This document shows, in pieces, positions 1 through 39,210 of a stretch of 64,000 nt of DNA. Origin of the DNA: a virus (lineage: Duplodnaviria > Caudoviricetes). The DNA is taken from IMG/VR virus record IMGVR_UViG_3300020050_005097, positions 12,308-76,307 of that record. One strand, given 5' to 3'. Below the pieces are notes generated by a model. That model was not told the origin of the DNA. It made no database searches and saw nothing but the letters and a program-made list of their open reading frames with translations. How positions within the stretch are numbered: the stretch's first letter is position 1; every line of letters begins with the position of its first letter. Made by a program: the position numbers and the translations under genes.

Positions 1-45
1 TTCCTTGATCATTCCGCGGATCTTGTTGCGGGTTTCTTCATTCAT
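1..45 (-). CDS. partial hypothetical protein (MNEETRNKIRGMIKE..., runs off window)
   Basis: ATG at 45 with AGGAG SD; open to window edge. Confidence 0.5.
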   Translation of the reverse strand, partial: MNEETRNKIRGMIKE

Positions 46-73
46 TTGTGTCTCCTAGGTTGGAAAAAGAAGA

Positions 74-101
74 GGAAATACCGTGTTACTTTGGTATCTC
101 C
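74..101 (-). terminator. terminator hairpin, family II
   Basis: ggaaatacc/ggtatctcc stem, gtgttacttt loop, U-tract on minus strand. Confidence 0.7.
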
Positions 102-110
102 CCCTGGAAT

Positions 111-323
111 TTACTTCTTGGCGAGCGCGGATGTTACTGCTGGGTCGTTCATGCTGAACCGAAGTGTGGTGATGACAGCCGACACATTTCCCAGCGTGAG
201 GTGCAACTCGTCCAAAACCTTCTCGGTGAGAGGGGTTTCGAATCGGTTCAGCAACAGCACGGCGAGATGGTCGATGTCTTCTTGCAGTTCGTTCAGCCGG
301 TTGACGGCATAGTAAGGGTCCAT
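111..323 (-). CDS. small helical hypothetical protein (cassette)
   Basis: 70-aa ORF, AGGAGG SD, own promoter motif and terminator. Confidence 0.75.
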   Translation of the reverse strand: MDPYYAVNRLNELQEDIDHLAVLLLNRFETPLTEKVLDELHLTLGNVSAVITTLRFSMNDPAVTSALAKK

Positions 324-344
324 GGTGGGCCTCCTTGTTGTTCC

Positions 345-369
345 ATCTTAGCCCATGTAAAACCTGCGA
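345..369 (-). promoter_or_regulatory. 25-bp conserved promoter-like motif
   Basis: TCGCAGGTTTTACATGGGCTAAGAT on minus strand. Confidence 0.75.
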
Positions 370-408
370 GAAGAACATGACCCTTGTGTTACGGGTCAGA
401 GGTTCTCA
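370..408 (-). terminator. terminator hairpin, family I
   Basis: agaac-tgaccc...gggtca-gttct stem. Confidence 0.7.
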
Positions 409-420
409 GAACGTACTTCT

Positions 421-594
421 CTACTTCTTGTCCATGAGCTTCACGAGCTCGGGGTTCTTCTTGATGGCCTCCACCATGGTGTGGTAGAACGACTTGTCGA
501 TGGCGGTCAGCAGCATTCGCGCGAGCACGAAGCCGATGCCGAACTTGAAGCCGTTCTTGACGGTGAAGATGTTCTTCGAAGTGGTCTCGATCAT
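421..594 (-). CDS. 57-aa membrane micro-protein (MIETTSKNIF...)
   Basis: hand-translated; AGGAG SD; hydrophobic segment; GC3-rich codons. Confidence 0.75.
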   Translation of the reverse strand: MIETTSKNIFTVKNGFKFGIGFVLARMLLTAIDKSFYHTMVEAIKKNPELVKLMDKK

Positions 595-628
595 GGGGAC
601 TCCTGGGAGTTAGATGGATGAGTGTTCC

Positions 629-653
629 ATCTTAGGGCTTGTTAATTGTGCGA
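629..653 (-). promoter_or_regulatory. 25-bp conserved promoter-like motif
   Basis: atctta-gggc-ttgttaattgtgcga on plus strand. Confidence 0.75.
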
Positions 654-721
654 GAGAAATGTAATACCCGTTGGGTATTTTGATATTCGTTTGTGTAACA
701 GGTATTACATCCAGGACGGCG

Positions 722-823
722 TCAGTTGCGGTTTGACCAGTGGCGTTGTCGCCTTCGGGCATCGTACGCAGCTCCGCTGATAACTAGTGCGGGCGCGATG
801 ATCCAGAAGAGAACTTCGTTCAT
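722..823 (-). CDS. 33-aa membrane micro-protein (MNEVLFWIIAPALVISGAAYDARRRQRHWSNRN)
   Basis: hand-translated; GAGGAG SD; N-terminal TM, basic tail. Confidence 0.65.
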   Translation of the reverse strand: MNEVLFWIIAPALVISGAAYDARRRQRHWSNRN

Positions 824-850
824 GGGTTTCTCCTCTCTGTGGTAGGTCCT

Positions 851-875
851 ATTACAGGCCATGTTATTACTGCGA
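851..875 (-). promoter_or_regulatory. 25-bp conserved promoter-like motif
   Basis: attaca-ggcc-atgttattactgcga. Confidence 0.75.
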
Positions 876-925
876 GAGGAAGAAAAGGGTATGACCGGTT
901 GGTCAGGGACCCCATTTCGGTGCTT

Positions 926-1114
926 CTACTTCTGGAGGGTGCTGAACCAGAACTTCACGTACTCGCGACGCTCTTCGCTGTTGCGGGGCAACGGGTGTCC
1001 GGGGTCCGCCTCTTCGATCTGACCGATGACGGTGATACCGAGGGTGAACATACCGTACACGACGGTTGCTCCAACAGCAGTTCCTGCGGCGAAAACGACG
1101 ATGTTCTTGAACAT
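926..1114 (-). CDS. 62-aa membrane micro-protein
   Basis: N-terminal TM, own promoter and terminator. Confidence 0.8.
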   Translation of the reverse strand: MFKNIVVFAAGTAVGATVVYGMFTLGITVIGQIEEADPGHPLPRNSEERREYVKFWFSTLQK

Positions 1115-1140
1115 GATGTACTCGTTTCTGTAGAGGTGCT

Positions 1141-1165
1141 ATTATACCCCTTGTTATCCTTGCGA
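1141..1165 (-). promoter_or_regulatory. 25-bp conserved promoter-like motif
   Basis: attata-cccc-ttgttatccttgcga. Confidence 0.8.
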
Positions 1166-1220
1166 GAAGAAAAAAGGTAGCCGATGTTCTGGCTGCCTCT
1201 ATACATCTTTGCGTTGGTAA

Positions 1221-1346
1221 CTAGAGCCTTCTCTGATGATGCACCGTATAGACGATCCACCAGATCACCATGCTACCCAAGAGGGCGGCTGCGGTGATGT
1301 TCGGATGGGTGTCGATCATGTCGGCGACATACGTGAAGAGGTTCAT
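1221..1346 (-). CDS. 41-aa membrane micro-protein (MNLFTYVADM...)
   Basis: hand-translated; AAAGG SD; TM segment. Confidence 0.7.
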   Translation of the reverse strand: MNLFTYVADMIDTHPNITAAALLGSMVIWWIVYTVHHQRRL

Positions 1347-1375
1347 TAGCTTACCTTTCGGCAGGCGGATGTGTC

Positions 1376-1400
1376 ATTATACCCCATGTTAAATATGCGT
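1376..1400 (-). promoter_or_regulatory. 25-bp conserved promoter-like motif
   Basis: attata-cccc-atgttaaatatgcgt. Confidence 0.8.
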
Positions 1401-1404
1401 GAGA

Positions 1405-1438
1405 GAAGAACATAACCCGTGTGGGTCAGCGGTTCTCA
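1405..1438 (-). terminator. terminator hairpin, family I
   Basis: gaagaacataacccgtgtgggtcagcggttctca. Confidence 0.75.
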
Positions 1439-1440
1439 GA

Positions 1441-1656
1441 TCAGGGGTTGATTTCCCGTAGGTAGTCGTGGTCCGAGCACGATGCGTGCATGAGCATGAG
1501 CATCCGCATCTTGGCGAATTCCATGGGCGTCACGGTCCACTCACTCGTACTGGTTGGTCCAGTGATGGTGAGCTTCACGCTGTCGTCCAGGTCTTCGATC
1601 TTGATGTCGATGTCATTCCCAAGCTCGTTCACGAACTCGGTTTCGGCAGATGCCAT
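1441..1656 (-). CDS. acidic hypothetical protein (cassette)
   Basis: ORF, likely start MASAE after GAGG SD. Confidence 0.8.
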   Translation of the reverse strand: MASAETEFVNELGNDIDIKIEDLDDSVKLTITGPTSTSEWTVTPMEFAKMRMLMLMHASCSDHDYLREINP

Positions 1657-1678
1657 TTGGGGCCTCTTTCTGTGGTCC

Positions 1679-1703
1679 ATTATACCACATGTTAAATATG
1701 CGT
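1679..1703 (-). promoter_or_regulatory. 25-bp conserved promoter-like motif
   Basis: attata-ccac-atgttaaatatgcgt. Confidence 0.8.
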
Positions 1704-1715
1704 GAAAGAAAACCC

Positions 1716-1997
1716 TCAGCCCCTGTTAAGGGACTGCGGGAGTTGACTGATCGAACGTTGGGCGATTTGCAGGTGCATATTGATTTCATACTGCTTGTGG
1801 TCGCGCTCCTGCTTCGCCTCATGTACCGCTACGAGTCCGGACCAACGGGCATCTTCAGCGTCCTGCTTAGCCGTTACATCGGAAACCAGGTGGTTCACGG
1901 TAACGACAACCGAGGAGGTTGAGGTGGTGTTGGGCGCAGACTGCAGAGCAATCAAGGCGAAGAAGAGTACGAACAAGTAGCGAAATGCTATTTTCAT
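1716..1997 (-). CDS. secreted/membrane-anchored coiled-coil protein
   Basis: signal-peptide-like N-terminus; GGAG SD. Confidence 0.75.
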   Translation of the reverse strand: MKIAFRYLFVLFFALIALQSAPNTTSTSSVVVTVNHLVSDVTAKQDAEDARWSGLVAVHEAKQERDHKQYEINMHLQIAQRSISQLPQSLNRG

Positions 1998-2026
1998 TGC
2001 GTTTCTCCGATTGTTTGACGGTGTCT

Positions 2027-2051
2027 ATTATATGCCTTGTGAATCGTGCGA
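2027..2051 (-). promoter_or_regulatory. 25-bp conserved promoter-like motif
   Basis: attata-tgcc-ttgtgaatcgtgcga. Confidence 0.75.
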
Positions 2052-2066
2052 GAAGATATGTAAAAA

Positions 2067-2098
2067 GAAGAACATAACCCGTGTGGGTCAGAGGTTCT
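2067..2098 (-). terminator. terminator hairpin, family I
   Basis: 31/32 identical to 1405-1436. Confidence 0.75.
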
Positions 2099-2120
2099 GT
2101 AAATCTCTAGATGTAAGCGG

Positions 2121-2327
2121 TTACATGTTGCGAACAATTTCGTTCGTCGTGGCGGTCGCCAACAACGCCTCGCTCACGTCGATGATATCGAGCATTGTGG
2201 CAATCTTCATGTCGTCCAGCTCCTCCTGTGTTTGGGGGATTTGGTCGACATCGATCGTGTTCAACAGCTCGAGCCAGTTGATGAGGTCGGAGTGGATGGT
2301 GATGGCGCGGGGGACGTCTTTGAGCAT
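2121..2327 (-). CDS. acidic helical hypothetical protein (cassette)
   Basis: 68-aa ORF, GGAG SD. Confidence 0.8.
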   Translation of the reverse strand: MLKDVPRAITIHSDLINWLELLNTIDVDQIPQTQEELDDMKIATMLDIIDVSEALLATATTNEIVRNM

Positions 2328-2360
2328 GATGTGCTCCGTTTCGGTCTAGGCGGATTTCCT

Positions 2361-2385
2361 ATTATACACCATGTGAATCCTGCGT
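2361..2385 (-). promoter_or_regulatory. 25-bp conserved promoter-like motif
   Basis: attata-cacc-atgtgaatcctgcgt. Confidence 0.8.
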
Positions 2386-2441
2386 GAGAAAAGAAAAAGA
2401 GAGGCCATGTGCGGGGGTTGTGATGGCCCCTCTTTCTGAAA

Positions 2442-2450
2442 TCAGGCCAT
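2442..2450 (-). other. Met-Ala-stop mini-ORF in an otherwise empty cassette
   Basis: AAGGAG-7nt-ATG GCC TGA between promoter motif and terminator. Confidence 0.55.
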
Positions 2451-2494
2451 GATGCGTCTCCTTGATCTAGGTGGGCGAAGCATGGTGGGGTTTC

Positions 2495-2519
2495 ATTACA
2501 GCCCTTGTGATTCCTGCGT
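2495..2519 (-). promoter_or_regulatory. 25-bp conserved promoter-like motif
   Basis: attaca-gccc-ttgtgattcctgcgt. Confidence 0.75.
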
Positions 2520-2526
2520 GAGAAAA

Positions 2527-2555
2527 GGAAATGTCGTGTTGCTTATGACATTTCC
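2527..2555 (-). terminator. terminator hairpin, family II
   Basis: perfect 9-bp ggaaatgtc/gacatttcc stem, gtgttgcttat loop. Confidence 0.75.
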
Positions 2556-2591
2556 AATGTACTCGTACTGCGGTTGGTTCTACTGCGGGGC

Positions 2592-2693
2592 TTACTTGTT
2601 GCGGATGTATCGGATCGCCCATGCGATCGTCACGATGGGGATCATGGCGATCATGGTGATCATGAACATGGCTTCGAACAGGAAGTCGAGCAT
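2592..2693 (-). CDS. 33-aa membrane micro-protein (MLDFLFEAMFMITMIAMIPIVTIAWAIRYIRNK)
   Basis: hand-translated; GGAGG SD; single TM. Confidence 0.7.
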   Translation of the reverse strand: MLDFLFEAMFMITMIAMIPIVTIAWAIRYIRNK

Positions 2694-2719
2694 GGTATTT
2701 CCTCCGGTGTGTGGGTACT

Positions 2720-2744
2720 ATTATACCCCTCGTTATTCCTGCGC
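2720..2744 (-). promoter_or_regulatory. 25-bp conserved promoter-like motif
   Basis: attata-cccc-tcgttattcctgcgc. Confidence 0.75.
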
Positions 2745-2783
2745 CCCTATGATTAAGATTAGTGGAGGAGCGTCAGATATAAC

Positions 2784-3746
2784 TCACGAGTACTTCAGCG
2801 GGAACACCGGAAGGTCCACAAGCGTTTCACCCTGGTTGCCACGGAAGTCGTAGCCCATACGGATCAGATCCTGAATGCGGTTGCTAGTCGCGTCATCGTC
2901 AACAGACCCATCGGGCTTGCGAACCGGCTCGACGTAGGTCTTCATACCGCTGAGAACAGTGTAAAGCTTTCCATCCAGTTCATTGACACCCATCCACTTG
3001 TCGTCGTTGGCGGCGATGGTCTCCTGGAGAGCCTTCACAATCCGGTCGCCAAGGGCGTTGAACATTGGATTGGTAGCGGCAACATACTCTTCGGGGGTCA
3101 TATCATCTTCTCCGTTTAGGGTGAGGTACTTAACAGTAATATCGTGGATGCGCTTTCCGTTCTTCTTACCAATATCCCAATGCGCGTTTTCAGGGGTATG
3201 GTTGTGATCTGTCCAGCCATCGTAGTCGATGAACTCCTGAGCGCCCATTCGCAGAGGAGAGTCGTACCGAGCCAGGATGATTCCTTCATTGGCACCCCAG
3301 AAACGAGGGTACTTCTCAATGTCGAAGTCATGCCCAGCCTTCTTCGTGGCAGCCAGCATGTAACCGACGGCCTCATATGTACCGTCGTCCCACTCTTCAG
3401 CGGCGAAGCCCATAACCTCAGCCTGGATATTGGGCCCAGACCGGTTGGTATCAGCTCCACCAGGAGCATTCTCCAGGGTATAACCACCGACGTTAAGGGG
3501 GAGTAACTGCCAGATGAGTTTGTTACCCACAAGGAAATGAGGGAGCCCACGACCGGGATCACGTGCCCATGAGGAAATGAGCATGTTAGCGATTGCTAGA
3601 GTTGAGCCGGTCTCCGCGGTATGCAGAGTAAACTTAGGTCCTTCATTGGGGCGAATATCCAAGCCGGCATTGATCGGGTGGTAAATGACCTCAATACCAT
3701 GCGCTGCCGCAGGTGCTGGGTCGATCCATAGTGTATGTGCAGCCAT
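2784..3746 (-). CDS. endolysin, N-acetylmuramoyl-L-alanine amidase (Amidase_2-like)
   Basis: LHTAET, PHFLV, IQAEV and HNHTPENAHWD Zn-amidase motifs. Confidence 0.8.
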   Translation of the reverse strand: MAAHTLWIDPAPAAAHGIEVIYHPINAGLDIRPNEGPKFTLHTAETGSTLAIANMLISSWARDPGRGLPHFLVGNKLIWQLLPLNVGGYTLENAPGGADTNRSGPNIQAEVMGFAAEEWDDGTYEAVGYMLAATKKAGHDFDIEKYPRFWGANEGIILARYDSPLRMGAQEFIDYDGWTDHNHTPENAHWDIGKKNGKRIHDITVKYLTLNGEDDMTPEEYVAATNPMFNALGDRIVKALQETIAANDDKWMGVNELDGKLYTVLSGMKTYVEPVRKPDGSVDDDATSNRIQDLIRMGYDFRGNQGETLVDLPVFPLKYS

Positions 3747-3759
3747 GGAAACCTTTCTG

Positions 3760-4014
3760 TTAGTGTCTATTTACTAGACTCATTTGCTCGTGATCGTGAT
3801 CTACGTAATACAGCGTTTCGTAGCGATCATCGATTTCTACCGTCAGTTCAACGAGCCTTCCTCCTTCCAGAGGGTTTACCTCTCGGAGCATCCCAGACAC
3901 AGGCGTGCCATCAGGGAGAGAAGTGTCAACGATATGGTCTAGCTGAAGCAGCAAAGACATGACGTTGTGGGTGGATCGAGGGTTTTCGATGTCGTACACC
4001 ATGGTTACCAGCAT
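3760..4014 (-). CDS. hypothetical protein
   Basis: ORF with AGGAG SD. Confidence 0.65.
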   Translation of the reverse strand: MLVTMVYDIENPRSTHNVMSLLLQLDHIVDTSLPDGTPVSGMLREVNPLEGGRLVELTVEIDDRYETLYYVDHDHEQMSLVNRH

Positions 4015-4031
4015 TGGTTCCTCCTATAGAA

Positions 4032-4199
4032 TTATGGGTCGAAAATGATTTCGGTTGGGTGCAACTCTACAGCACAAAACTCGCAAACAAGGATTGGCGA
4101 ACCCTCTGGGCAGTGTTTAAAACAACACTTCCGCCACATAGGACTCCACACCTCGGTTTTATAGATTCCACACTTACTGCAAACTAGTTGGGGCTCCAT
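4032..4199 (-). CDS. Cys-rich (Zn-finger-like) micro-protein
   Basis: CxxC motifs; AAGGAG SD. Confidence 0.6.
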   Translation of the reverse strand: MEPQLVCSKCGIYKTEVWSPMWRKCCFKHCPEGSPILVCEFCAVELHPTEIIFDP

Positions 4200-4467
4200 C
4201 TTGCTCCTTAACGACGTGGTGGAATCCACCGGTGAAGTAACACATTGATGGAAGAGGTCCCTTCAATGCTCGACCACACACCATACATACCCTCCGCCGG
4301 AAATTTCTCCCGATGATTTCGTCGCCGTGAGTGCAGCGAATATGTTTGTGTTTACACACCCCTGGAATCCATCGCTGGAACCAGTTACCAGACGCGCCAC
4401 GTTTGTACGCTTTGTCCTGCTGATCAAGCATGTATTTCATGCGTTTTCGTTGCTCTTCATCGTTCAT
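4174..4467 (-). CDS. Cys-rich hypothetical protein
   Basis: CxH/CxxC motifs; ATGA overlap with upstream gene. Confidence 0.65.
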   Translation of the reverse strand: MNDEEQRKRMKYMLDQQDKAYKRGASGNWFQRWIPGVCKHKHIRCTHGDEIIGRNFRRRVCMVCGRALKGPLPSMCYFTGGFHHVVKEQDGAPTSLQ

Positions 4468-5024
4468 GGCATCTCCCAATCTCCCGGCAGAGTATCGAAG
4501 ACCGTACCCTGAATGTTGAAGTTCAAGACAAATTCGTTCACGACACGCTGCTTCTCAAGATCCCCAAACGAAATGGCTCCGATGCTTGGGGTAATCCAAC
4601 CCATGAGAGCTCCGTAAGAAGTTCGTTCGAACCCAAGGGCATCGTAGACTTCGTTGAGGAAGACATGGCCACGGGCGTGAAGGAGATCATTGAAGTAGTT
4701 CAATTGACACCGGAGAAACAGCTTGTTAAGTTCGCCATTCTTCTTCCAATGACGAGAAGTCGAGTCGAACACTCGGTCATGTTTCGACATGAGCTGCGTC
4801 GGGTTTTGGTCCTCTTCGAACTTCTTCGGCATGATCAACTCTACTACGTCAATAGGCGTGAAGGTCCAACCGCGGGAACCATTGTACAAAGTATCAAACG
4901 TGGCCGTAAAACTATGGTTATCGCCACAGATATCGATGATGGTACATTCGTTCAAATCTCTTGACGAGAGAAGAACGTCTCCAACACGAAGGCATGTGGC
5001 AAAGGTCTTAATTGTACGAGTCAT
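4464..5024 (-). CDS. chimeric protein with DUF6353-like C-terminus
   Basis: RGHVFLNEVYDALG shared with 32951-33805. Confidence 0.75.
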   Translation of the reverse strand: MTRTIKTFATCLRVGDVLLSSRDLNECTIIDICGDNHSFTATFDTLYNGSRGWTFTPIDVVELIMPKKFEEDQNPTQLMSKHDRVFDSTSRHWKKNGELNKLFLRCQLNYFNDLLHARGHVFLNEVYDALGFERTSYGALMGWITPSIGAISFGDLEKQRVVNEFVLNFNIQGTVFDTLPGDWEMP

Positions 5025-5029
5025 TATTA

Positions 5030-5048
5030 CTCCTTAGTTAGGTGAATT
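5030..5048 (-). repeat. start-associated motif AATTCACCTAACTAAGGAG
   Basis: identical copies at 5030, 5681, 6055; variants at 7351, 10198, 10750, 12692, 13462, 16569, 17202, 18782, 18866, 19222, 20109, 20634, 23385. Confidence 0.85.
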
Positions 5049-5202
5049 AGAAATCGTTGACAAGGCCGGCTAAGCCTACGTCGTCATGGTTTCGACTTTC
5101 ATCGACAAACCACGTGTGCATTTTAGTAGTACCCCCTGGTGTAGCGCAGCAAAGCCACACAAGAACTTGCTTGTAGTCGTTGGCTAGATACATGAAGTCC
5201 AT
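5047..5202 (-). CDS. 51-aa micro-protein, LVxxF C-terminal family
   Basis: hand-translated, ends DDVGLAGLVNDF; TAATG coupling. Confidence 0.7.
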   Translation of the reverse strand: MDFMYLANDYKQVLVWLCCATPGGTTKMHTWFVDESRNHDDVGLAGLVNDF

Positions 5203-5675
5203 TACTCTGGTGTCCGATCGATAATCCGATATGGATGTTCGGTATCGAAATCGCCGGTGTGTGGGAAGAACGGTTTGAAATATGACCCGGGGTAGGTCTT
5301 ACTCTCAAGGGCAAAGAACTCACACGCTTCGTGAGTCTCCACATCAACAATCCGGTCCAGCAACCACCGGCGCATATCGGCTTCAGAGAACATCACCGCT
5401 TCGGGAGGGATTACAAACGTATGCTGCACGACGAATGGCCGATCGATATCTTGGAATGTGATTGTGTCCGTAACGTCTCGATAATCCATACTGAAACTCA
5501 TATCAGGAACACGCCGATTCGATTCGTGTCTACCAGTCGAATCCGTGCACTTGATGTCGATCCGAAAGCGGAATGGTTCAAGGTAGTTGAACGCCCAACC
5601 CTCTTTGTAGTGCAACCGCTTGATCATGCCGATCAGATCTGGCGATGGTGATAGTTCGTCTGTATGTTGAACCAT
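5202..5675 (-). CDS. hypothetical phage protein
   Basis: 157-aa ORF after start-associated motif. Confidence 0.75.
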   Translation of the reverse strand: MVQHTDELSPSPDLIGMIKRLHYKEGWAFNYLEPFRFRIDIKCTDSTGRHESNRRVPDMSFSMDYRDVTDTITFQDIDRPFVVQHTFVIPPEAVMFSEADMRRWLLDRIVDVETHEACEFFALESKTYPGSYFKPFFPHTGDFDTEHPYRIIDRTPE

Positions 5676-5684
5676 TATTACTCC

Positions 5685-5891
5685 TTAGTTAGGTGAATTA
5701 ACCTTCCTACTCAGCCCCTCGGGCTTATGCTTGTGGCAGAACTTGTTATTGAACCGATCCTGCCAAATCACGTCACCCTCACAAACCCCAAGCGCCATGG
5801 AGCACCAACGATAAAAGCATCCGTTGTCGGGGCCCATAGCATACTCCTTGCCCTCATAGACCATGAAGGGCCACTTCTCGTCGGTGTCCAT
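5685..5891 (-). CDS. Cys-rich hypothetical protein
   Basis: GGAG SD; C-terminus NSPN-stop encoded by the start-associated motif. Confidence 0.65.
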   Translation of the reverse strand: MDTDEKWPFMVYEGKEYAMGPDNGCFYRWCSMALGVCEGDVIWQDRFNNKFCHKHKPEGLSRKVNSPN

Positions 5892-5902
5892 TACATCTCC
5901 TA

Positions 5903-6049
5903 CTACCGCTTCTTACGAAGCCTCAAGATGTGGCCAAGCCCATTCTGAAGGATTTGTGGGTCTGGGGTGTTCTGGACGACCTCGTCTTTCTGCCGCTGGC
6001 TCTTCGGGGTGTTCTTACGGGGAAGGTACTTACCATGCTTTAACTTCAT
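5903..6049 (-). CDS. 48-aa basic micro-protein
   Basis: hand-translated; follows start-associated motif. Confidence 0.6.
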   Translation of the reverse strand: MKLKHGKYLPRKNTPKSQRQKDEVVQNTPDPQILQNGLGHILRLRKKR

Positions 6050-6158
6050 TATTGCTCCTTAGTTAGGTGAATTGATAGAGGGTGTTAGGACTTAGGGCTA
6101 ACGCGCCCAAGGAGAGACGCTTGAATAGTTTCCACATCAAGACCCATATCCTAACAAG

Positions 6159-6242
6159 TGTCCGCGGTGGGATTCGAACCCACACAGCCGTTAGGCCCAG
6201 GGTGTTTAAGACCCCTATGTCTACCTATTCCATCACGCGGAC
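6159..6242 (-). tRNA. trnL: tRNA-Leu(UAA)
   Basis: GTCCGCG/CGCGGAC acceptor, GGTTCGAATCC T-arm, anticodon loop CT-TAA-AC, long variable arm; CCA not encoded. Confidence 0.9.
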
Positions 6243-6248
6243 AAACCT

Positions 6249-6473
6249 TCACATCACGAGCTTGCACATCTCTCGGATGATTTGTAGAACCAGAGTAACT
6301 GAAGCCTTATATAGCGGATCGTTAATTAATCGATCTACATTGGGAGTCCAGTCATCATGATCGTGCGGGATGATAGTGGCATATTCACGCCAACTTGGCC
6401 CGTAGCAAGCCTCGACCCTTTCGGCAAGAGGAACCACCCGATCCCATGTGCAATGGTAGGTGAAATGCGTCAC
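6249..6473 (-). CDS. hypothetical protein
   Basis: GTG start overlapping upstream stop. Confidence 0.55.
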   Translation of the reverse strand: MTHFTYHCTWDRVVPLAERVEACYGPSWREYATIIPHDHDDWTPNVDRLINDPLYKASVTLVLQIIREMCKLVM

Positions 6474-6667
6474 AAGTCCACGAGCTCCTTGGAGAACCGG
6501 ATCGTATGTCTTGATCCCCAACCCATCCCACCCTCAAATCGTCGCCAACCCTCAGCACACTTTCGATACGTGCTGTAACCGTGAGAGGTCGCTAGAACCT
6601 TCCCATTTCTGGCCTTGTACCGATAGGCGAACTTCTTGTCTTCGGTGATGAAGAATTCGACAATCAC
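6470..6667 (-). CDS. YegP/DUF1508-like protein
   Basis: FAYRYKARNGKVLATSHGY pattern. Confidence 0.6.
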   Translation of the reverse strand: MIVEFFITEDKKFAYRYKARNGKVLATSHGYSTYRKCAEGWRRFEGGMGWGSRHTIRFSKELVDL

Positions 6668-7344
6668 GATGCCTCCTCTTGGGCTTTACGAACCTTGCGT
6701 TCCTGCCTGGCGTTCTGGTACTGGCGGTAACCAAGAACACAAGTAGCGCAGTGGCATCCGTAGTTCACGTAACCACTGCGCCCATGCGTCGGAGGAGTTG
6801 CCCCCTTACGACGCTCCCGGCCCTTCTTGTTCGAGATGGACCCCTGGAGCTTGCACTCAGGGCATCGACACCGCCAATTGGTGTAACCGGATAAAGTCCC
6901 GTGCGGGATACGATCTTCGGACTGTGACTCCATCCACTTCTTATGACGATCAGAGTTCGCTTTCGTGCACGGCTCGCATTTGCACCCGTTTTGGTAACAC
7001 TGAACGGTGCCGTGGGTGTCTTTCTTCAACACTAACGGGGCCGTTTCAATCCCAAACCGTCGCATAACGTCGCAAACAGTGTCGTATGGATACCCGGATC
7101 GTTCCGCGATCTCGTGCCGAGTAAGACCTTCGTCGGCCAACTCAGAAAAGATCTTGAACCGCTTTTCGGCCTCTATCTTTTGTGACCGAACAGTAACACC
7201 AGCCCGATTGGCGATCTGACGAACGCGCTCTCGGGTAAGTCCATACGAATCCCCAATTGCCTGGAGAGTTTCCCCCGCAGCAACCCGCCGTGCAATTTCA
7301 GCATTACGTTCGACGTTCTGTGGCTTTGGTCCACGTTTGCCCAT
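6664..7344 (-). CDS. HTH (sigma region 4-like) protein with three HG..Y...CxCxxC repeats
   Basis: GETLQAIGDSYGLTRERVRQI, second HTH, three Cys/His repeats. Confidence 0.8.
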   Translation of the reverse strand: MGKRGPKPQNVERNAEIARRVAAGETLQAIGDSYGLTRERVRQIANRAGVTVRSQKIEAEKRFKIFSELADEGLTRHEIAERSGYPYDTVCDVMRRFGIETAPLVLKKDTHGTVQCYQNGCKCEPCTKANSDRHKKWMESQSEDRIPHGTLSGYTNWRCRCPECKLQGSISNKKGRERRKGATPPTHGRSGYVNYGCHCATCVLGYRQYQNARQERKVRKAQEEAS

Positions 7345-7358
7345 GTTGAGCTCCTTTG

Positions 7359-7667
7359 TTAGGCCTCTTCTTGAGGCGTGTACTGTCCTCTAGTCACTCG
7401 TCTGATGGTGTCGGAAGATACCCCGAACAACTTGGCGATGGAATGCTGAGTCTTGAAGTTGCGATGCAGCCGCTTGATTTCAGCAACCTGCTGTGCGGTC
7501 AGTTTCGGCTTCCCGTAGCTGTTCATGCCGTCGCTGGTACGTTTGTAAACCACGTCATAGTGGGCTTTACAATACCCCGCCACATTACCTCTGGCCCTAC
7601 AATCCTCGTACTTGCATTGCTTTGAGAGACTCACTTCGACCTCCAGAAGTTCTTGATCAACCACCAT
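7359..7667 (-). CDS. HTH DNA-binding protein with N-terminal CxxxxC...CxxHY
   Basis: KLTAQQVAEIK...QHSIAKLFGVSSDTIRRV. Confidence 0.7.
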   Translation of the reverse strand: MVVDQELLEVEVSLSKQCKYEDCRARGNVAGYCKAHYDVVYKRTSDGMNSYGKPKLTAQQVAEIKRLHRNFKTQHSIAKLFGVSSDTIRRVTRGQYTPQEEA

Positions 7668-7837
7668 GCGGTTCCGAGCACTGCCTTACGGTCCAGCCAC
7701 GTCACCCGGGTGGAATATGACGACTTCACAAGCAGCCGCCCGTTGATTTCGATGAACAACAACTCGTTGGTGCAATTCCAAGCAGCGCAACAGCAATGCG
7801 CCGTGCGTCTGTGTACTTCCGAACGTTTCTCACTCAC
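7631..7837 (-). CDS. hypothetical protein
   Basis: ATGA-coupled ORF. Confidence 0.5.
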   Translation of the reverse strand: MSEKRSEVHRRTAHCCCAAWNCTNELLFIEINGRLLVKSSYSTRVTWLDRKAVLGTAWWLIKNFWRSK

Positions 7838-8181
7838 GAATGCTCCCTAAAATTATGAAGCTCGAGAGCTTCTTGGGCGTCTGGTCTTGTTCCGTACTTC
7901 TTCGACTGCCAGATGCAGTGATAGCAACGGGCAATATAGTCACGGTTCATTTCGTAGACAACCTCGGAAACAACCGTGTGATCGATCTTGTGCTCTTCAA
8001 TTTTCCTGGGCTTACGCAGACGATCGTGATCCGTGTAAGCATGAGCGACCTTCTTGACGGTCAACCCATAAGCTGCCGCAACCTCCTTAACACTGACCCC
8101 AGAATCAATGAGATCAATGAGCCGGTCGGTCGACGACTTTCTGTTCCATGGATCCGGTTGGGATCCTGCTGAATGGAGCAT
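7834..8181 (-). CDS. putative HTH protein with CxxC
   Basis: SGVSVKEVAAAYGLTVKKV. Confidence 0.6.
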   Translation of the reverse strand: MLHSAGSQPDPWNRKSSTDRLIDLIDSGVSVKEVAAAYGLTVKKVAHAYTDHDRLRKPRKIEEHKIDHTVVSEVVYEMNRDYIARCYHCIWQSKKYGTRPDAQEALELHNFREHS

Positions 8182-32950: not shown

Positions 32951-33805
32951 CTAGATCTTGTCGTAGATAATTCCGTCGACGTTGAAGTCGAGGTGGCACA
33001 CCCGTTCGATACCCTGCACGAAGTCCTGGTTGCGCGACTCGTACATACCGAAGTCGATGTAGTTGTCCCCGTCGCCACCGAGAACCCAACCGACAACGGA
33101 TCCTTCCGTAGACCGCTCGTAGCCAAGGGCATCGTAGACCTCATTGAGGAACACGTGACCACGAGACTGGAGCAGATCGTTGGCATAGGCTTGCTGGCAC
33201 TTGATGAAGATCCGATTCAACTCAGGGTTCTTCTTGAAATTGCGAGATCCCTCGTCGAAGAACCGCCCGTAACCAGAGCCACCCTTACCGACAATCTTGA
33301 CCTTCGCCTTCTTGCCGTCAGGAAGTTCGACCTTCTGCGTCGTAATGGCGCGGTGGATCTCCTCTTCCTTCTCATCGCCAAGCGCAGCCTGGGTGCGAGT
33401 ACGATACTCGTCATGCACCTTGGCAAGCGCAGCGTAGGCCGCAGTCATACCAGCATTGCGCCGAGTAAGCTGCACGTGAGAGCCCGTGAGAGCGCCCACA
33501 GAGGCTCCTAAGACGATAACCGGCGGAGCATACAGCTTCACCACCTTGCTGACGTTTACGCCGTACACGAGTGCCAGGGCCCGCTTCTGCTCATCAGGGT
33601 CATCGATGTTCTCACGAACCGCCTCAAGGTCCTGCTTCATCTTCGGAAGTTCTTCCGAAAGCTTGAGGGTGGCACGACAAGCCATGACCGTTCCCGTGGC
33701 CACACCAGCGATACCACCAGCAAACATGATGTTGGGGGCGTTCTTCTTGAGAAGAAGGGCGGCGCGGAACAGGCTTTTCGTAACTCCTACTGGAATCATA
33801 CTCAT
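32951..33805 (-). CDS. DUF6353-like protein
   Basis: hydrophobic N-terminal helices; RGHVFLNEVYDALG; LDFNVDG. Confidence 0.75.
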   Translation of the reverse strand: MSMIPVGVTKSLFRAALLLKKNAPNIMFAGGIAGVATGTVMACRATLKLSEELPKMKQDLEAVRENIDDPDEQKRALALVYGVNVSKVVKLYAPPVIVLGASVGALTGSHVQLTRRNAGMTAAYAALAKVHDEYRTRTQAALGDEKEEEIHRAITTQKVELPDGKKAKVKIVGKGGSGYGRFFDEGSRNFKKNPELNRIFIKCQQAYANDLLQSRGHVFLNEVYDALGYERSTEGSVVGWVLGGDGDNYIDFGMYESRNQDFVQGIERVCHLDFNVDGIIYDKI

Positions 33806-33813
33806 ATTTCTCC

Positions 33814-33948
33814 TTAGATTTTTCCGTTCGCCACAAAGCGAAGGTATACTGCTGTTACTTGGGCGTCCGACATGTTTTGCACCTTTTTGGCCCAAGCGGG
33901 GCCAGGATATGCATTTGCGATCGCCGCCCGTTGCTGTTGGACGTCCAT
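33814..33948 (-). CDS. 44-aa micro-protein (MDVQQQRAAIANAYPGPAWAKKV...)
   Basis: hand-translated; AAGGAG SD. Confidence 0.7.
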   Translation of the reverse strand: MDVQQQRAAIANAYPGPAWAKKVQNMSDAQVTAVYLRFVANGKI

Positions 33949-34718: not shown

Positions 34719-34744
34719 GTGATCCTTTCATAGATTAATTGGAA

Positions 34745-34781
34745 AGAAGAGGGAATACCGTGTTGCTTTGGTATTCGCCTC
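34745..34781 (-). terminator. terminator hairpin, family II
   Basis: gggaatacc-gtgttgcttt-ggtattc; near copy of 69-101. Confidence 0.75.
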
Positions 34782-34786
34782 CCGAA

Positions 34787-35068
34787 CTACTTTCTCTTGT
34801 TCCTTTTCTCCTCGAGTTTGTCTCGGAACTTCGGCTTGAATTCGTAGTCGAAGTAGTCCCAGGCCTTATCGATCTTGATGTCGACGCGCTCTTGGATGAC
34901 ATCTTGGATGACCATCGTTGTTGCGAACTTGGCCGCCGTGACAGGAAGCTCTTGGGTAAGAGTCTTGTCTTGGGGCGTGTTGTTGTCAACGATGGACCAG
35001 ATGATCTGAGAGATGCCGGCGCCAATGACGAAGCCTGAAACTTTCTTTACGATTTTGCGTCCGTCCAT
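34787..35068 (-). CDS. hypothetical protein (cassette)
   Basis: own promoter and terminator; GC3-rich. Confidence 0.8.
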   Translation of the reverse strand: MDGRKIVKKVSGFVIGAGISQIIWSIVDNNTPQDKTLTQELPVTAAKFATTMVIQDVIQERVDIKIDKAWDYFDYEFKPKFRDKLEEKRNKRK

Positions 35069-35103
35069 AGGGTCCTTTCGGATGTAGGGTGGATGAGTGG
35101 TTC

Positions 35104-35128
35104 ATTATAGGGCGTGTTATTATTGCGT
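35104..35128 (-). promoter_or_regulatory. 25-bp conserved promoter-like motif
   Basis: attata-gggc-gtgttattattgcgt. Confidence 0.8.
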
Positions 35129-35261
35129 CTGGTAGGACATAACCCACCGAATTAACAACAACCCGAAAAAGCCGATTAGTATCCAGAAAAACACCCAAGT
35201 GACGGCGTCGATAAGGCCCCAGAAAATATGGGTTAAGATCGACCACGTTTTACTTCGACTA

Positions 35262-35741
35262 TTACGCCGCAGGAGGATCACCAAAATCAATTTCAGTAGC
35301 AGTAGGATCTGCGGTGTCGCTGACATTGAGTGCGTTTGCGGTCTTCAACTTGAGCATCTCGCCAGCAGCGGCTTCGGACATCTCGGCGGGAAGAATCCCG
35401 ATCACGAAATTGGCGGCGGCATCGGCATCGGTGACAAACTGCATGAGAAGCGCGTCGTATGCGGCAGAGCACCGGAACGTCTCTCGATCGGCGTCGTTCT
35501 TAATGAAGGCCTTGCCGTCTTCACTCTTCCTACCATAAGAAGTAAGAATCAGATTCTCGAAGAACTCGAACAGTTCCTGCTGGTTGTCTTCCTTCTCGGT
35601 AAGCGCACGCATTGCATCGGCGAGACCACCCTTGACAGAGATCTCGAGCCGAACAAGCTCGACCTTCGTGAGGTTGAAGTGAAGCGTTTCGGTCTGCTTA
35701 ACGCCGTTGAAATCGTCGTACATGATAATGTGCTTAAGCAT
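35262..35741 (-). CDS. conserved phage protein
   Basis: YDDFNG...LHFNLTKVEL...YGRKSEDGKAF. Confidence 0.8.
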   Translation of the reverse strand: MLKHIIMYDDFNGVKQTETLHFNLTKVELVRLEISVKGGLADAMRALTEKEDNQQELFEFFENLILTSYGRKSEDGKAFIKNDADRETFRCSAAYDALLMQFVTDADAAANFVIGILPAEMSEAAAGEMLKLKTANALNVSDTADPTATEIDFGDPPAA

Positions 35742-35849
35742 TTCGGGTTTCCTTTGTGTTTGTTTAGAATAGAAAGAGAAAGAGAAAGTCCTAGTTTTTG
35801 AGGCTAGGGCTTTCCCTGTAGGGGCACTTCCTTGGGCACTACTTGGGCA

Positions 35850-36104
35850 CTACTCGGTGTCGGTCTCGAACACGTCGATGATGCCGTCGCTGTCGTTGTC
35901 CGACGAGTCGGTGGAGTTGGGGTCCGACCCGAGCGCGTTGGCTCCGGCGACGAGCACGGCGGCAAGGACGGCAGCGGCGCCGAGTGTGACGGCGGTCTGG
36001 TGGTCCTTGGTCCATGCCTTCGCACGGGTCCAGCGCGACGGGGCGTCCTCCTCGACCTTCTCGATGGAGGTGTTGGCGGTGACGGGGGTCAGGTCGGTGG
36101 TCAT
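35850..36104 (-). CDS. single-TM acidic protein (cassette)
   Basis: extreme GC3 bias; own promoter. Confidence 0.8.
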   Translation of the reverse strand: MTTDLTPVTANTSIEKVEEDAPSRWTRAKAWTKDHQTAVTLGAAAVLAAVLVAGANALGSDPNSTDSSDNDSDGIIDVFETDTE

Positions 36105-36150
36105 GATTGACTCACTTTCTTGCTGTGGTTGTGGGTTGGGGATGTGGTCC

Positions 36151-36175
36151 ATTACAGGGCCTGTAAATCCTGCGT
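36151..36175 (-). promoter_or_regulatory. 25-bp conserved promoter-like motif
   Basis: attaca-gggc-ctgtaaatcctgcgt. Confidence 0.75.
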
Positions 36176-36177
36176 GG

Positions 36178-36924
36178 TTATGTCAAAACTTTCGTGTAAT
36201 TGTAGTCGAAAGCCAGACATGGCCGCCCATCCTCACATAGAATTGACGTGAAGTCCAACGATAGCTGTTTGTCAGCCTCCCAACCAATACGACCCGAATC
36301 AGATGTCGGAGGAATCCCAATCATGTAGTAGAAATCGCTAAGCGTCACATACATGTCGCTCATGAGCTTAGCGTTTACATCGTTCTGGGACTTTCGGAGC
36401 TTCTCCATGTCGCAATTGAAATACCTACCGGTAAACAATTCGCAACACATTACAGGCCCACTACCCACAACGATGGTTTCCCCCGGGGGATTTGCTCGAA
36501 TATGGTCTTTGGCGATTTCCTCACGGATCATTTGATCTTTCTTCTCACCGTGAACTTCGATCGCCTTTTCCCGGTATTCGGCGAATCCTTTCTCGGCAAC
36601 CGCAAGCAGCGAATATGCAGCCGCCGTTCGCTTTGAACTGATGTGGTTTGCGCCCAGAATGCTACCAACAGTGACAGCGCCCGCTGCTACCGCCGGAATA
36701 TACAGGTCCCACACAAGCTCAATCTTTTCACCAATTGTGGTGGGATTATTCTCAGGAGCCTCCATGTACTCGTGATCCCTGATTCGGATAGCAGCTCTGT
36801 ATGACGCCTTACCTGCTAAATATGCGGTGCCGATTGTTCCGCTGACACCCAACGCGGTAAGGATCGCCGGAGAGTTCGACTTGATTACCTTCTGTGCACT
36901 TTGAGCAAGACTAATGAGATTCAC
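36178..36924 (-). CDS. DUF6353-like protein
   Basis: NSPAILTALG...ELFTGRYF...VTLSDFY. Confidence 0.75.
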   Translation of the reverse strand: MNLISLAQSAQKVIKSNSPAILTALGVSGTIGTAYLAGKASYRAAIRIRDHEYMEAPENNPTTIGEKIELVWDLYIPAVAAGAVTVGSILGANHISSKRTAAAYSLLAVAEKGFAEYREKAIEVHGEKKDQMIREEIAKDHIRANPPGETIVVGSGPVMCCELFTGRYFNCDMEKLRKSQNDVNAKLMSDMYVTLSDFYYMIGIPPTSDSGRIGWEADKQLSLDFTSILCEDGRPCLAFDYNYTKVLT

Positions 36925-37037
36925 TCAGGGGTCTCTCCTTTTCGTACGGCTTTGATGAATTCATATACGATGATGAACCAAAAGAGCAAACCACCAAGCC
37001 ATGCCATACGGTCTAGAACGTCTTTGATGAGGTTCAT
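36921..37037 (-). CDS. 38-aa membrane micro-protein
   Basis: AGGAG SD; single TM. Confidence 0.65.
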   Translation of the reverse strand: MNLIKDVLDRMAWLGGLLFWFIIVYEFIKAVRKGETPE

Positions 37038-37048
37038 CGTTACTCCTA

Positions 37049-37399
37049 TTACTTCTTGGTGCGGAACGTGCGTTGGTATTCGGCGTTGGTAAGAACGACG
37101 AATTTGGTTTTGTCCATCATTGGATCGTACAAGCGAACAATCCAAGTTCCACTAGGAGCAATCTGCGGGTCTTCAGGACACTCCCGACAGTACACATGAA
37201 AGTGATATACGACATCGTGGGAAGTATCCCATCCGACATCGTGGGAAGTATCCCATCCGACGCGCTTAACGTTCTTGAAAATCGTCTCGATCTTGTCCGC
37301 ATCAGCAAGAGAACAATTAAGCGGGACAAAAACCGCCTTGATGGAGGGCTTACAAAACTTGGGTTTTTCGACCTTGATCTTATGCTTTTTTTTCTTCAT
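37049..37399 (-). CDS. hypothetical protein with 8-aa tandem duplication
   Basis: AAGGAG SD; VGWDTSHD twice. Confidence 0.7.
   Translation of the reverse strand: MKKKKHKIKVEKPKFCKPSIKAVFVPLNCSLADADKIETIFKNVKRVGWDTSHDVGWDTSHDVVYHFHVYCRECPEDPQIAPSGTWIVRLYDPMMDKTKFVVLTNAEYQRTFRTKK
37210..37261. repeat. 24-bp perfect tandem duplication
   Basis: cgacatcgtgggaagtatcccatc twice. Confidence 0.9.
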
Positions 37400-37423
37400 T
37401 AGTGCTCCTTATTATTGGATAGA

Positions 37424-37543
37424 AAAAAGGTATGAGAAGACTTGGGTATCATAGCCCAATCGTAACTATGATTTGGCGGCTTTGCTTCCGCACCAGGCAG
37501 GTAGGTCTTACACCTACACATTCGTGTCTTGCCTTCTTCTCAT
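37424..37543 (-). ncRNA. candidate ~110-nt leader/small RNA
   Basis: promoter motif upstream, 9-bp closing inverted repeat, U-tract, no ORF. Confidence 0.5.
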
Positions 37544-37566
37544 CTTAGGGCGTGTTTTTTCTGCGA
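37542..37566 (-). promoter_or_regulatory. 25-bp conserved promoter-like motif
   Basis: atctta-gggc-gtgttttttctgcga. Confidence 0.75.
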
Positions 37567-37573
37567 GGTGAGA

Positions 37574-37607
37574 GAAGAACATAACCCTTGCGGATTAGAG
37601 GTTCTCA
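37574..37607 (-). terminator. terminator hairpin, family I
   Basis: gaagaacataacccttgcggattagaggttctca. Confidence 0.7.
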
Positions 37608-37627
37608 ACTCACTTCTCGCTAGACGT

Positions 37628-37843: not shown

Positions 37844-37847
37844 TTGA

Positions 37848-38321: not shown

Positions 38322-38400
38322 TAATTACTCCCATTTTGACATTAGGATGGAAAAGGATAACCAGTGTAGAACCTGGTCATTGCCTTTCACTGCTTGTCAT

Positions 38401-38685: not shown

Positions 38686-38793
38686 GATTTGCTCCTTGTG
38701 GAATGGATGGAAGAAAGGGGTGAGAGTCAGTTCTATTTGCTTTGGCTATTGCTAGCGTTGGCTACCGTACGGATACGGATAGATCTTCTTCTC

Positions 38794-39204: not shown

Positions 39205-39210
39205 GATTCC

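Follow-up and report, generated by a model that had tools for sequence, protein, structure and literature searches.

Most phage genes are small orphans, and how these genes are gained, lost and exchanged without wrecking the genome is still poorly understood. The locus examined here lies in a wastewater phage. A preliminary description of a 64,000-nt stretch of its DNA (hereafter the window; positions 12,308 to 76,307 of the 76-kb IMG/VR record IMGVR_UViG_3300020050_005097) reported ten consecutive mini-cassettes just after what we identify as the phage's endolysin-like gene. Each was said to be built from a 25-bp motif, a short leader, a Shine-Dalgarno sequence, one micro-ORF and a hairpin. 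The array was interpreted as an integrase-free gene-cassette accordion, in which recombination between repeated junctions would add, delete or swap single genes, probably for host takeover or anti-defence. We asked whether the units are real, whether related phages differ by whole units, and where the differences begin and end.

Anatomy of the array

Reading of the minus strand and scanning with a position weight matrix identified ten copies of a 24-nt promoter-like motif between window positions 2745 and 60, spaced 134-348 bp apart (Table 1). A degenerate pattern search found 7 matches, compared with 0 in 100 shuffled sequences; the matrix found 21 sites in the 76-kb contig, all on the coding strand, and none in 20 shuffles. 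Each motif is followed by a 21-34 nt leader with a ribosome-binding site. Every unit ends in a hairpin of -6.8 to -31 kcal/mol followed by a T/C-rich run that abuts the next motif. All ten joints have a hairpin, a T-run and the motif, and the same holds in relatives. A consensus scan found 14 terminator-like sites in window 1-4000, against 3.5 +/- 1.9 expected. The same array stands in separately assembled contigs of two JGI samples. The array described in the preliminary account therefore exists as reported, with one amendment: the second unit (X) has no credible ORF, only a strong ribosome-binding site followed by a start codon, one codon and a stop. Unit X is either an empty socket or a small RNA of about 95 nt; it had no Rfam match.

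Table 1. Coordinates of the array, its flanking genes and the second motif-rich region (window positions, all on the minus strand; promoters and terminators are predicted from sequence).
Feature	Position	Promoter	ORF	Terminator	Occurrence in relatives and other observations
Endolysin-like gene	2784-3746		320 aa		Bounds the array upstream; many homologues at 42-55% identity carry PF01510 Amidase_2; conserved left anchor in L107, L113, L114, L115 and L119
Unit C	2519-2743	2743-2720	2693-2592 (33 aa, one hydrophobic helix)	hairpin and T-run 2555-2519	Diverged homologues (36-37 aa) in all relatives that hold this stretch
Unit X	2385-2518	2518-2495	none credible	14-bp stem and T-run 2436-2385	L115 has an ORF-less unit of different sequence in the same slot
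Unit D	2060-2384	2384-2361	2327-2121 (68 aa, net charge -9)	2108-2060	Family present in every related array that holds this slot but evolves fast (dN/dS about 0.9)
Unit E	1705-2050	2050-2027	1997-1716 (93 aa, N-terminal hydrophobic helix)	1736-1705, overlapping the ORF end	Present only here and in L117
Unit F	1400-1702	1702-1679	1656-1441 (71 aa, net charge -9)	1437-1400	Matches phrog_12635 at E 1e-6; absent in L107 and L113-L116, present without E in L119, two tandem paralogues in L117/L118
Unit G	1165-1399	1399-1376	1346-1221 (41 aa, one hydrophobic helix)	1200-1165	Present in all relatives; dN/dS 0.19-0.38
Unit H	875-1164	1164-1141	1114-926 (62 aa, N-terminal hydrophobic helix)	918-875	Unique to this genome; slot holds an unrelated 79-84-aa gene (I) in L107, L113-L115 and L119, and nothing in L116
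Unit J	653-874	874-851	823-722 (33 aa, one hydrophobic helix)	712-653	Conserved in relatives; dN/dS 0.07-0.34
Unit K	369-652	652-629	594-421 (57 aa, hydrophobic centre)	407-369	Replaced by an unrelated 63-aa gene (L) in L107 and L114
Unit M	60-368	368-345	323-111 (70 aa, soluble)	105-60	Last unit in every relative, 45-100% protein identity
Start of 123-aa gene	1-45	no motif of its own			Bounds the array downstream and runs off the window edge; conserved right anchor
Second promoter-rich small-gene region	34743-40603	motifs at 40603, 39908, 39665, 38817, 37565, 36174 and 35127		copies at 37568-37607 and 34743-34774	The first terminator copy matches 1399-1438 at 88%, the second matches 66-97 at 94%

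The preliminary description also held that the same parts recur 32-38 kb away, and these distant copies are real. They comprise seven motifs and copies of two array terminators (Table 1), and a similar leader lies downstream of the motifs at 652 and 35127.

The motif occurs across a lineage of actinophages

A scan of IMG/VR with the motif returned 99 stretches of DNA, about two thirds of which share proteins with this phage by tblastn, with the primase-helicase at 50-74% identity. Many of them have arrays of 6-11 motifs spaced 200-400 bp apart behind T-rich runs, and they include cultured Gordonia cluster DJ phages. The phage is an activated-sludge siphovirus of the low-GC actinophage supercluster (Gordonia DJ, Streptomyces BI, Arthrobacter AM/AU/AW, Rhodococcus CC, and EL; bioRxiv 10.1101/842583), which shares a replication and structural backbone and a YonO-like putative RNA polymerase with helix-turn-helix ends. 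Consistent with this placement, the primase-helicase, DUF6353 and tail proteins are shared with DJ phage Tanis and metagenomic relatives, and a 776-aa truncated ORF scores 1070 bits against phrog_4291 and carries the GADFDGD loop.

Across the family the putative promoter reads T, CGCA at about -30 to -27, an A/T-rich stretch, ACA at -20 to -18, G at -16, TATAAT at -12 to -7, and GARA after it. No -35 box is conserved, and the motif does not match the host sigma-70 consensus of -35, -10 and upstream AT-rich elements. The -11 position is the least conserved of the hexamer (A in 83% of sites).

Related arrays differ by whole units

The preliminary description had proposed that alignment of related phages would show variable content with breakpoints inside the repeats, and this is what we observed. 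Nine related contigs (designated L107 and L113-L120) gave seven further versions of the array between the same endolysin gene and the same 123-aa gene. Written as gene families in order, this genome carries C X D E F G H J K M; L115 carries C X D G I J K M; L119/L120 carry B C D F G I; L107 and L114 carry A B C D G I J L M; L113 carries A B C D G I J K M; L116 carries A B C D G J K M; and L117/L118 carry E F' (empty promoter) F'' G. Families A, B, I and L have no homologue anywhere in this genome. Gene content is thus not fixed, although unit order is colinear throughout: no unit was seen in two different slots, and none was seen to move between the two promoter-rich regions. No circular or deleted forms were seen within one population among the assembled contigs.

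Homology blocks begin 9-60 nt before a promoter and end between the promoter and the start codon. Where a unit is missing, the single remaining promoter aligns to both flanking promoters over 24-49 nt. In L113 the sequence switches parent exactly at the CGCA box of the K promoter. The E-F pair is flanked by the longest exact repeat in the array, 26 nt. At least one crossover (L116) lies inside an ORF, so ordinary allelic recombination also shapes the array. A further variant was found in the wild, where one contig of sequencing run X1 carries 312 other letters in place of window 2743-2777, with its break at the 5' edge of the first promoter.

A recent event was found in cultured relatives. Gordonia phages Tanis and Gravy are 99.8% identical here and differ by exactly one 323-bp unit (75-aa ORF), present in Tanis and lacking in Gravy. 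The unit is flanked by 70-nt direct repeats of hairpin, T-run and promoter, and the crossover lies within their 41-nt identical stretch. The two phages differ by one unit, grow on a laboratory Gordonia strain and offer a tractable test system.

These observations bear on whether the repeats take part in recombination at all. They could be only expression signals, kept because each small gene needs insulated expression, while units come and go by illegitimate recombination anywhere and selection keeps only events that end between genes. Indeed, selection alone would remove indels that cut genes, so breaks in intergenic DNA are partly expected whatever the mechanism. The 44-nt joint cores within this genome are only 45-82% identical (mean 61%), with exact runs of 10-26 nt, which is short for efficient homologous recombination; the motif is equally conserved at isolated promoters outside the arrays; and the L116 crossover is intragenic. 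However, the position of the Tanis/Gravy crossover, the alignment of single promoters to both flanking promoters, and the 26-nt repeat around E-F argue against this alternative, which we consider unlikely.

No tyrosine integrase, serine recombinase or RecT was found in the 76-kb record; PF00589 and PF00239 were not found, while the controls matched.

The encoded micro-proteins

The nine ORFs of 33-93 aa have no reliable Pfam match (two hits fell well below the cut-off), and only one, in unit F, matches a PHROG, of unknown function. The dN/dS is 0.06-0.38 for families J, G, B, C and F, indicating that most of the micro-ORFs tested are under purifying selection. Six of the nine products look like single-pass membrane proteins.

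The position of the array, directly after an Amidase_2-type endolysin homologue, and the abundance of predicted membrane proteins raised the possibility that it is chiefly a lysis module of separately timed holins, antiholins or other lysis helpers. Unit C lies next to the endolysin in three architectures. In other relatives, however, A or B sits between the endolysin and C, content varies between close relatives, and soluble acidic proteins (D, F, M) are interleaved. The same promoter motif also heads non-lysis genes elsewhere in the genome, the 33-41-aa products look short for holins, and no holin family matched in Pfam or PHROGs. A lysis module is therefore improbable as the main explanation.

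A model for expression and turnover

We favor the view that the region is a hyperplastic array of ten autonomous transcription units, nine small protein genes and one unit without an ORF, and assign this reading a probability of about 0.8. In this model each unit starts at a lineage-specific promoter and ends at an intrinsic terminator whose T-run runs straight into the next promoter, such that each micro-gene would be expressed on its own and shielded from its neighbours. The terminator-promoter-leader joints are short direct repeats, and non-allelic homologous recombination between two joints would delete, duplicate or replace whole units without breaking a gene or its expression signals. 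The array would therefore change unit by unit among close relatives.

The anatomy, the family-wide motif, the unit-wise differences among relatives, the breakpoints inside the joints and the purifying selection on most of the ORFs tested are established by our analyses. In contrast, promoter and terminator activity, monocistronic transcription, homologous recombination as the mechanism, the enzymes that carry it out, and any role for the micro-proteins, including the proposed host takeover or anti-defence, are inferred. For transcription there is one weak RNA hint. In one metatranscriptome (X13), seven separate contigs each lie inside one unit and none bridges a joint, while DNA contigs of runs X1 and X2 do; the array holds no repeated 31-mer that would break an assembly. 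These are assembled contigs of a single study and cannot show starts, ends or strand, but they give no sign of polycistronic transcription that ignores the motifs and hairpins. Overall, the evidence supports the interpretation of the array as a recombining, integrase-free set of gene cassettes.

Comparison with known systems

The concept is not new. It is closest to the PeSL cassettes (promoter-early stem-loops) of T4-like myoviruses (Arbiol, Comeau, Krisch 2010, PMC2839356; Comeau 2014, PMC4122927), which are likewise composite repeats of a terminator stem-loop followed by a strong promoter. In both systems the motifs flank small orphan genes in hyperplastic regions, insertions, deletions and replacements between close relatives end in the motifs, and no dedicated recombinase is involved. 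Mini-circles have been shown for PeSLs. The present array differs in its unrelated lineage, in a promoter motif with CGCA and ACA boxes and no -35 box, and in its strict regularity, with one joint per gene for ten units.

The units also resemble the morons of lambdoid phages (Juhala, Hendrix and colleagues, 2000). A moron is a single gene with its own promoter and factor-independent terminator between two genes that are adjacent in a related phage. Unit I, between G and J, is present in L107 and absent in L116; units A and B are absent here and in L115; and one Tanis unit is absent in Gravy. Morons are usually single insertions with unrelated signals and are often expressed from a prophage. 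Here ten units stand in tandem and share one promoter type and related terminators, in a phage with no integrase found. Integron gene cassettes are also arrays of single small genes gained and lost as units, but integrons need an integrase, attC sites and one shared promoter, whereas here no integrase or resolvase was found and every unit has its own predicted promoter and terminator.

Within the same supercluster, a 50-bp intergenic motif was noted in Gordonia cluster DJ phage Vardy (PMC9671010), and many small transmembrane genes in the centre of the genome were noted for clusters CC, AM, AW, AU and DJ (PMC13313380). The Vardy motif was described as intergenic with a TATAAT -10 element, as here, a resemblance of description rather than of compared sequences; terminators and small membrane-protein genes accompany it there too. 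Those papers report the motif (five copies) and the gene architecture only, and not unit-wise turnover, breakpoints in the joints, or the family-wide extent of the motif.

PeSL-mediated shuffling has so far been documented only in T4-like myoviruses of Gram-negative hosts. Our analysis shows the same design in an unrelated, widespread siphovirus lineage that includes many cultured Gordonia, Streptomyces, Arthrobacter and Rhodococcus phages, with repeated joints bracketing single genes and the breakpoints of natural variants falling in those joints. This suggests convergent evolution of a plug-in architecture for accessory genes.

Candidate readers of the motif

The motif is a compact candidate promoter part, and which polymerase reads it, the host enzyme or the phage's own, bears on the role of the YonO-like polymerase in these phages. 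It is possible, though tentative and in our view less likely than not, that the conserved motif of about 29 nt is not a host sigma-A promoter but the promoter of the phage's own YonO-like single-chain RNA polymerase. If so, the arrays would be host-independent expression sockets, and any small gene dropped between two joints would be expressed in whichever host the lineage infects. That would explain why the same motif persists in relatives with 35-58% GC, and why units can be exchanged freely. Arguing against this reading, the hexamer is a perfect TATAAT, and a motif copy lies upstream of the polymerase operon itself (genome 3211), which would require the enzyme to be injected or first made from another promoter; moreover, YonO itself is reported to transcribe late genes. 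In its favor, the conserved stretch is long, contiguous and free of indels (-31 to -3), there is no -35 box, and the -11 position, which is critical for sigma-70-type enzymes, is the most tolerant of the hexamer. A 226-aa helix-turn-helix candidate factor is missing in the close relatives L113 and L114, so it is unlikely to be the reader.

Anatomy of the array

The window is bases 12308–76307 of a 76,307-bp viral contig, an IMG/VR record. Essentially all genes lie on the minus strand, and on that strand, from window 2745 down to 60, we found ten consecutive units of 134–348 bp. Each unit has a 24-nt motif (CGCA, six bases rich in A/T, ACA, five bases, then TATAAT or a close variant), a 21–34-nt leader with a ribosome-binding site, one ORF, and a hairpin with a T/C-rich run that abuts the next motif. 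The second unit (unit X) is the exception, as it has only a ribosome-binding site, a start codon, one codon and a stop, followed by a strong terminator. The motif is far beyond chance: one search gave 7 matches against 0 in shuffled sequence, and a weight matrix gave 21 sites in the contig, all on the coding strand, and none in shuffles. Terminator-like sites numbered 14, against 3.5 +/- 1.9 expected. The preliminary description had reported ten such mini-cassettes, with the same parts recurring more than 30 kb away; this observation is real, including the distant parts, although unit X departs from the one-ORF layout. The same array stands in separately assembled contigs of two JGI samples.

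Coordinates of the array and of other features examined. L004 is the viral contig; L115, L117, L118 and L119 are related contigs; X1, X2, X6 and X13 are sequencing runs.
Feature	Coordinates	Remarks
Array of ten units	window 60-2745	minus strand
Unit X, without an ORF	window 2385-2518	second unit of the array
ORF-less unit of L115	L115:2448-2541	same slot as unit X
Recurring array parts	window 34.7-40.6 kb
Paralogous terminator	window 37568-37607
Two tandem paralogues of family F	L117:369-1064	also in L118
Promoter right after the endolysin in L119	L119:1547-1570	degraded hexamer
X13 metatranscriptome contigs	window 106-323, 416-606, 674-828, 928-1112, 1442-1654, 1751-2007 and 2110-2344	seven contigs
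Replaced stretch in a contig of X1	window 2743-2777	312 other letters
Loose ends of X2	window 918 and 1139	unit H
Joints with 40-nt sides (examples)	L001 2875 to 3149; 2899-2938 in X6	read as cross-matches
HTH_23/Sigma70_r4 protein	window 6664-7344	226 aa
tRNA-Leu(TAA) gene	window 6158-6242
DUF6353 paralogues (phrog_2152)	window 36178-36924, 32951-33895, 4464-5024	third copy shorter
YonO-like putative single-chain RNA polymerase ORF	L004:2-2329	minus strand; 9,979-12,306 bases before the window start; 776 aa, truncated
Gaps with short repeated words	L004:3930-4340	about 8.0-8.4 kb before the window start

The phage and its relatives

The phage is a siphovirus, with a large terminase, a portal, a protease-capsid fusion, a tape measure and a ReqiPepy6-Gp37-like tail protein. 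It also has a DUF5906 primase-helicase, two tRNAs and three DUF6353 paralogues, the third of which matches only the C-terminal part of the family. A blastn search of window 1–8000 against 50,697 phage records gave only tiny hits. The only notable DNA hit to an unrelated phage was that of the tRNA-Leu(TAA) gene, which is 83% identical over 69 nt to a tRNA-Leu of the human-associated IAS virus.

A scan of IMG/VR with the motif returned 99 stretches of DNA, about two thirds of which share proteins with this phage by tblastn, with the primase-helicase at 50–74% identity. They include the cultured Gordonia cluster DJ phages Tanis and Crocheter. GC content among these loci ranges from 35 to 58%, and many have their own arrays of 6–11 motifs behind T-rich runs. 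This group has been described as a low-GC actinophage supercluster with a putative YonO-like RNA polymerase (bioRxiv 10.1101/842583), with many small transmembrane genes in the centre of these genomes (PMC13313380). For the DJ phage Vardy, five copies of a 50-bp intergenic motif with TATAAT have been reported (PMC9671010). Near-identical DNA was found in wastewater and activated-sludge runs from 13 studies; that the host is an actinobacterium is an inference from the relatives.

Array content differs by whole units among relatives

To assess whether cassette content and order vary among relatives, a test proposed with the preliminary description, we first searched IMG/VR for relatives through the endolysin-like gene upstream of the array. 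None were found, and the five closest IMG/VR records also lack this gene. Relatives came instead from a large protein collection, in which the endolysin-like gene has homologues that carry Amidase_2 and the 123-aa gene downstream of the array also has homologues. Contigs carrying those homologues supplied the whole interval in close relatives (L107 and L113 to L120, all related contigs). The cassette ORFs cluster into 14 families. Order is always colinear, and every difference is a whole unit.

Array content in this genome and in related contigs. Letters denote unit families; X is the unit without an ORF.
Source	Array
This genome	C X D E F G H J K M
L115	C X D G I J K M
L119/L120	B C D F G I ...
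L107, L114	A B C D G I J L M
L113	A B C D G I J K M
L116	A B C D G J K M
L117/L118	E F' (empty promoter) F'' G

We also considered whether units had been relocated within this genome, but families A, B, I and L have no homologue anywhere in it. In L117 and L118, two diverged paralogues of family F (73 aa and 71 aa, 87% and 51% identical to F of this genome) stand in tandem with an extra empty promoter between them, a sign of unit duplication. ORF-less units (promoter, about 60–95 nt, terminator) sit in the same slot in two relatives, this genome and L115, but with unrelated sequence. Unit X, which keeps a strong ribosome-binding site, may be an emptied cassette or a small RNA; an Rfam search of window 1–3000 gave no match, so it is not a known RNA family. 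In L119, the promoter right after the endolysin keeps the upstream context seen in this genome but stands before family B instead of C. Across relatives, the same fixed promoter position heads A, B or C.

Positions of the breakpoints

Pairwise alignments showed homology blocks that begin 9–60 nt before a promoter, in the terminator, and end between the last base of the motif and the start codon. Where a unit is missing, the remaining promoter aligns to both flanking promoters of the longer genome, with an overlap of 24 nt for A-B, 34 nt for X and 49 nt for I. L113 is identical to L107 upstream, and switches to the sequence type of this genome exactly at the CGCA box of the K promoter. The E-F pair, present here but absent in most relatives, is flanked by the longest exact repeat in the array (26 nt). 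One crossover, in L116, lies inside the 3' end of ORF J; therefore, ordinary allelic recombination acts here as well.

A recent event was seen in cultured phages. Tanis and Gravy are 99.8% identical over 14.7 kb, and in this stretch they differ by one 323-bp unit with a 75-aa ORF. In Tanis that unit is flanked by 70-nt direct repeats made of hairpin, T-run and promoter, whereas Gravy has a single hybrid repeat; the crossover lies in the 41-nt stretch where the two repeats are identical. This is what homologous recombination between joints would leave behind.

Assembled contigs of environmental runs suggested further variants. A contig of run X1 carries 312 other letters in place of window 2743–2777, with its break at the 5' edge of the first promoter, which fits an extra unit in that sample. 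Loose ends of run X2 hint that the ORF of unit H is replaced there. Joints with 40-nt sides were not taken as variants, as we read them as cross-matches of paralogous terminators.

Selection on the ORFs and a weak hint of separate transcription

The dN/dS ratio is 0.06–0.38 for families J, G, B, C and F, and about 0.9 for D. Six of the nine products have one hydrophobic helix, and three are acidic or soluble. Database searches gave no functional lead. Pfam gave only two hits far below cut-off, and PHROGs gave only phrog_12635, a family of unknown function, for F. The ESM Atlas gave scores of 0.79–0.82 for M and F, which is chance level, and tblastn of F against phages found one weak Caulobacter phage hit.

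In the one true metatranscriptome analyzed (X13), each of seven contigs lies within one unit and none bridges a joint, whereas DNA contigs of X1 and X2 do bridge joints. The array has no repeated 31-mer that would break an assembly. We regard this as no more than a weak hint of monocistronic RNAs. X13 covers the array and not the flanking genes, but holes in such coverage prove nothing, and we do not use this as evidence of high expression.

Mechanism and comparison with described systems

The analysis directly establishes the anatomy of the array, its unit-wise turnover and the location of the breaks in the joints, together with the absence of an integrase, resolvase or RecT in the 76-kb record. 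The preliminary description had proposed that recombination between repeated junctions adds, deletes or swaps single micro-genes without an integrase, and our comparisons support this interpretation. The mechanism itself is inferred: non-allelic homologous recombination between the joints would delete, duplicate or replace units, carried out by host enzymes or by unidentified phage enzymes. The genome does have a PD-(D/E)XK nuclease and a helicase. Joints in this genome are only 45–82% identical, which may reflect survival of arrays whose repeats have drifted apart.

The design works like the PeSL cassettes of T4-like phages and like morons. However, it is not a homologous member of the PeSL set, as the promoter type differs and the phage lineage is unrelated. 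In the papers we searched, this lineage has only a motif report and a remark on small membrane genes, with no account of unit-wise shuffling.

Candidate enzymes reading the motif

A logo from 373 non-redundant family sites showed contiguous conservation from -31 to -3: T, CGCA, RRWWTT, ACA, G at -16, TATAAT, GARA. There is no -35 box. In sites chosen without reference to the hexamer, the second hexamer position is the least conserved, with A in 83%, which is unusual for sigma-70-type recognition. The enzyme could be host sigma-A holoenzyme, with or without a phage factor, to which we assign a probability of roughly 55%; the phage's own polymerase is a possible but less likely reader. The 226-aa helix-turn-helix protein was considered as the reader and judged unlikely, as it is absent from the close relatives L113 and L114 and its PHROG matches are homing-endonuclease-like. 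It is present here and in the DNA stretch L104 but missing at the same place in L113 and L114, and may therefore be a mobile gene. We also looked for a second motif in front of the structural genes that might mark a different promoter class, but the gaps there are few and showed nothing recurrent.

The contig carries the putative polymerase described for this supercluster, as an ORF cut by the contig end. It scores 1070 bits against phrog_4291, has a weak PF05183 match, and has the GADFDGD loop near residue 523. No terminal repeat was found at the contig ends, and the ORF at the far end does not continue the truncated polymerase gene, so the record lacks about 130 codons. Just downstream of the helicase gene, two intergenic gaps hold several copies of short repeated words (GGACAAATC-like and TTTTTGAGAAC-like), which may be replication-origin iterons.
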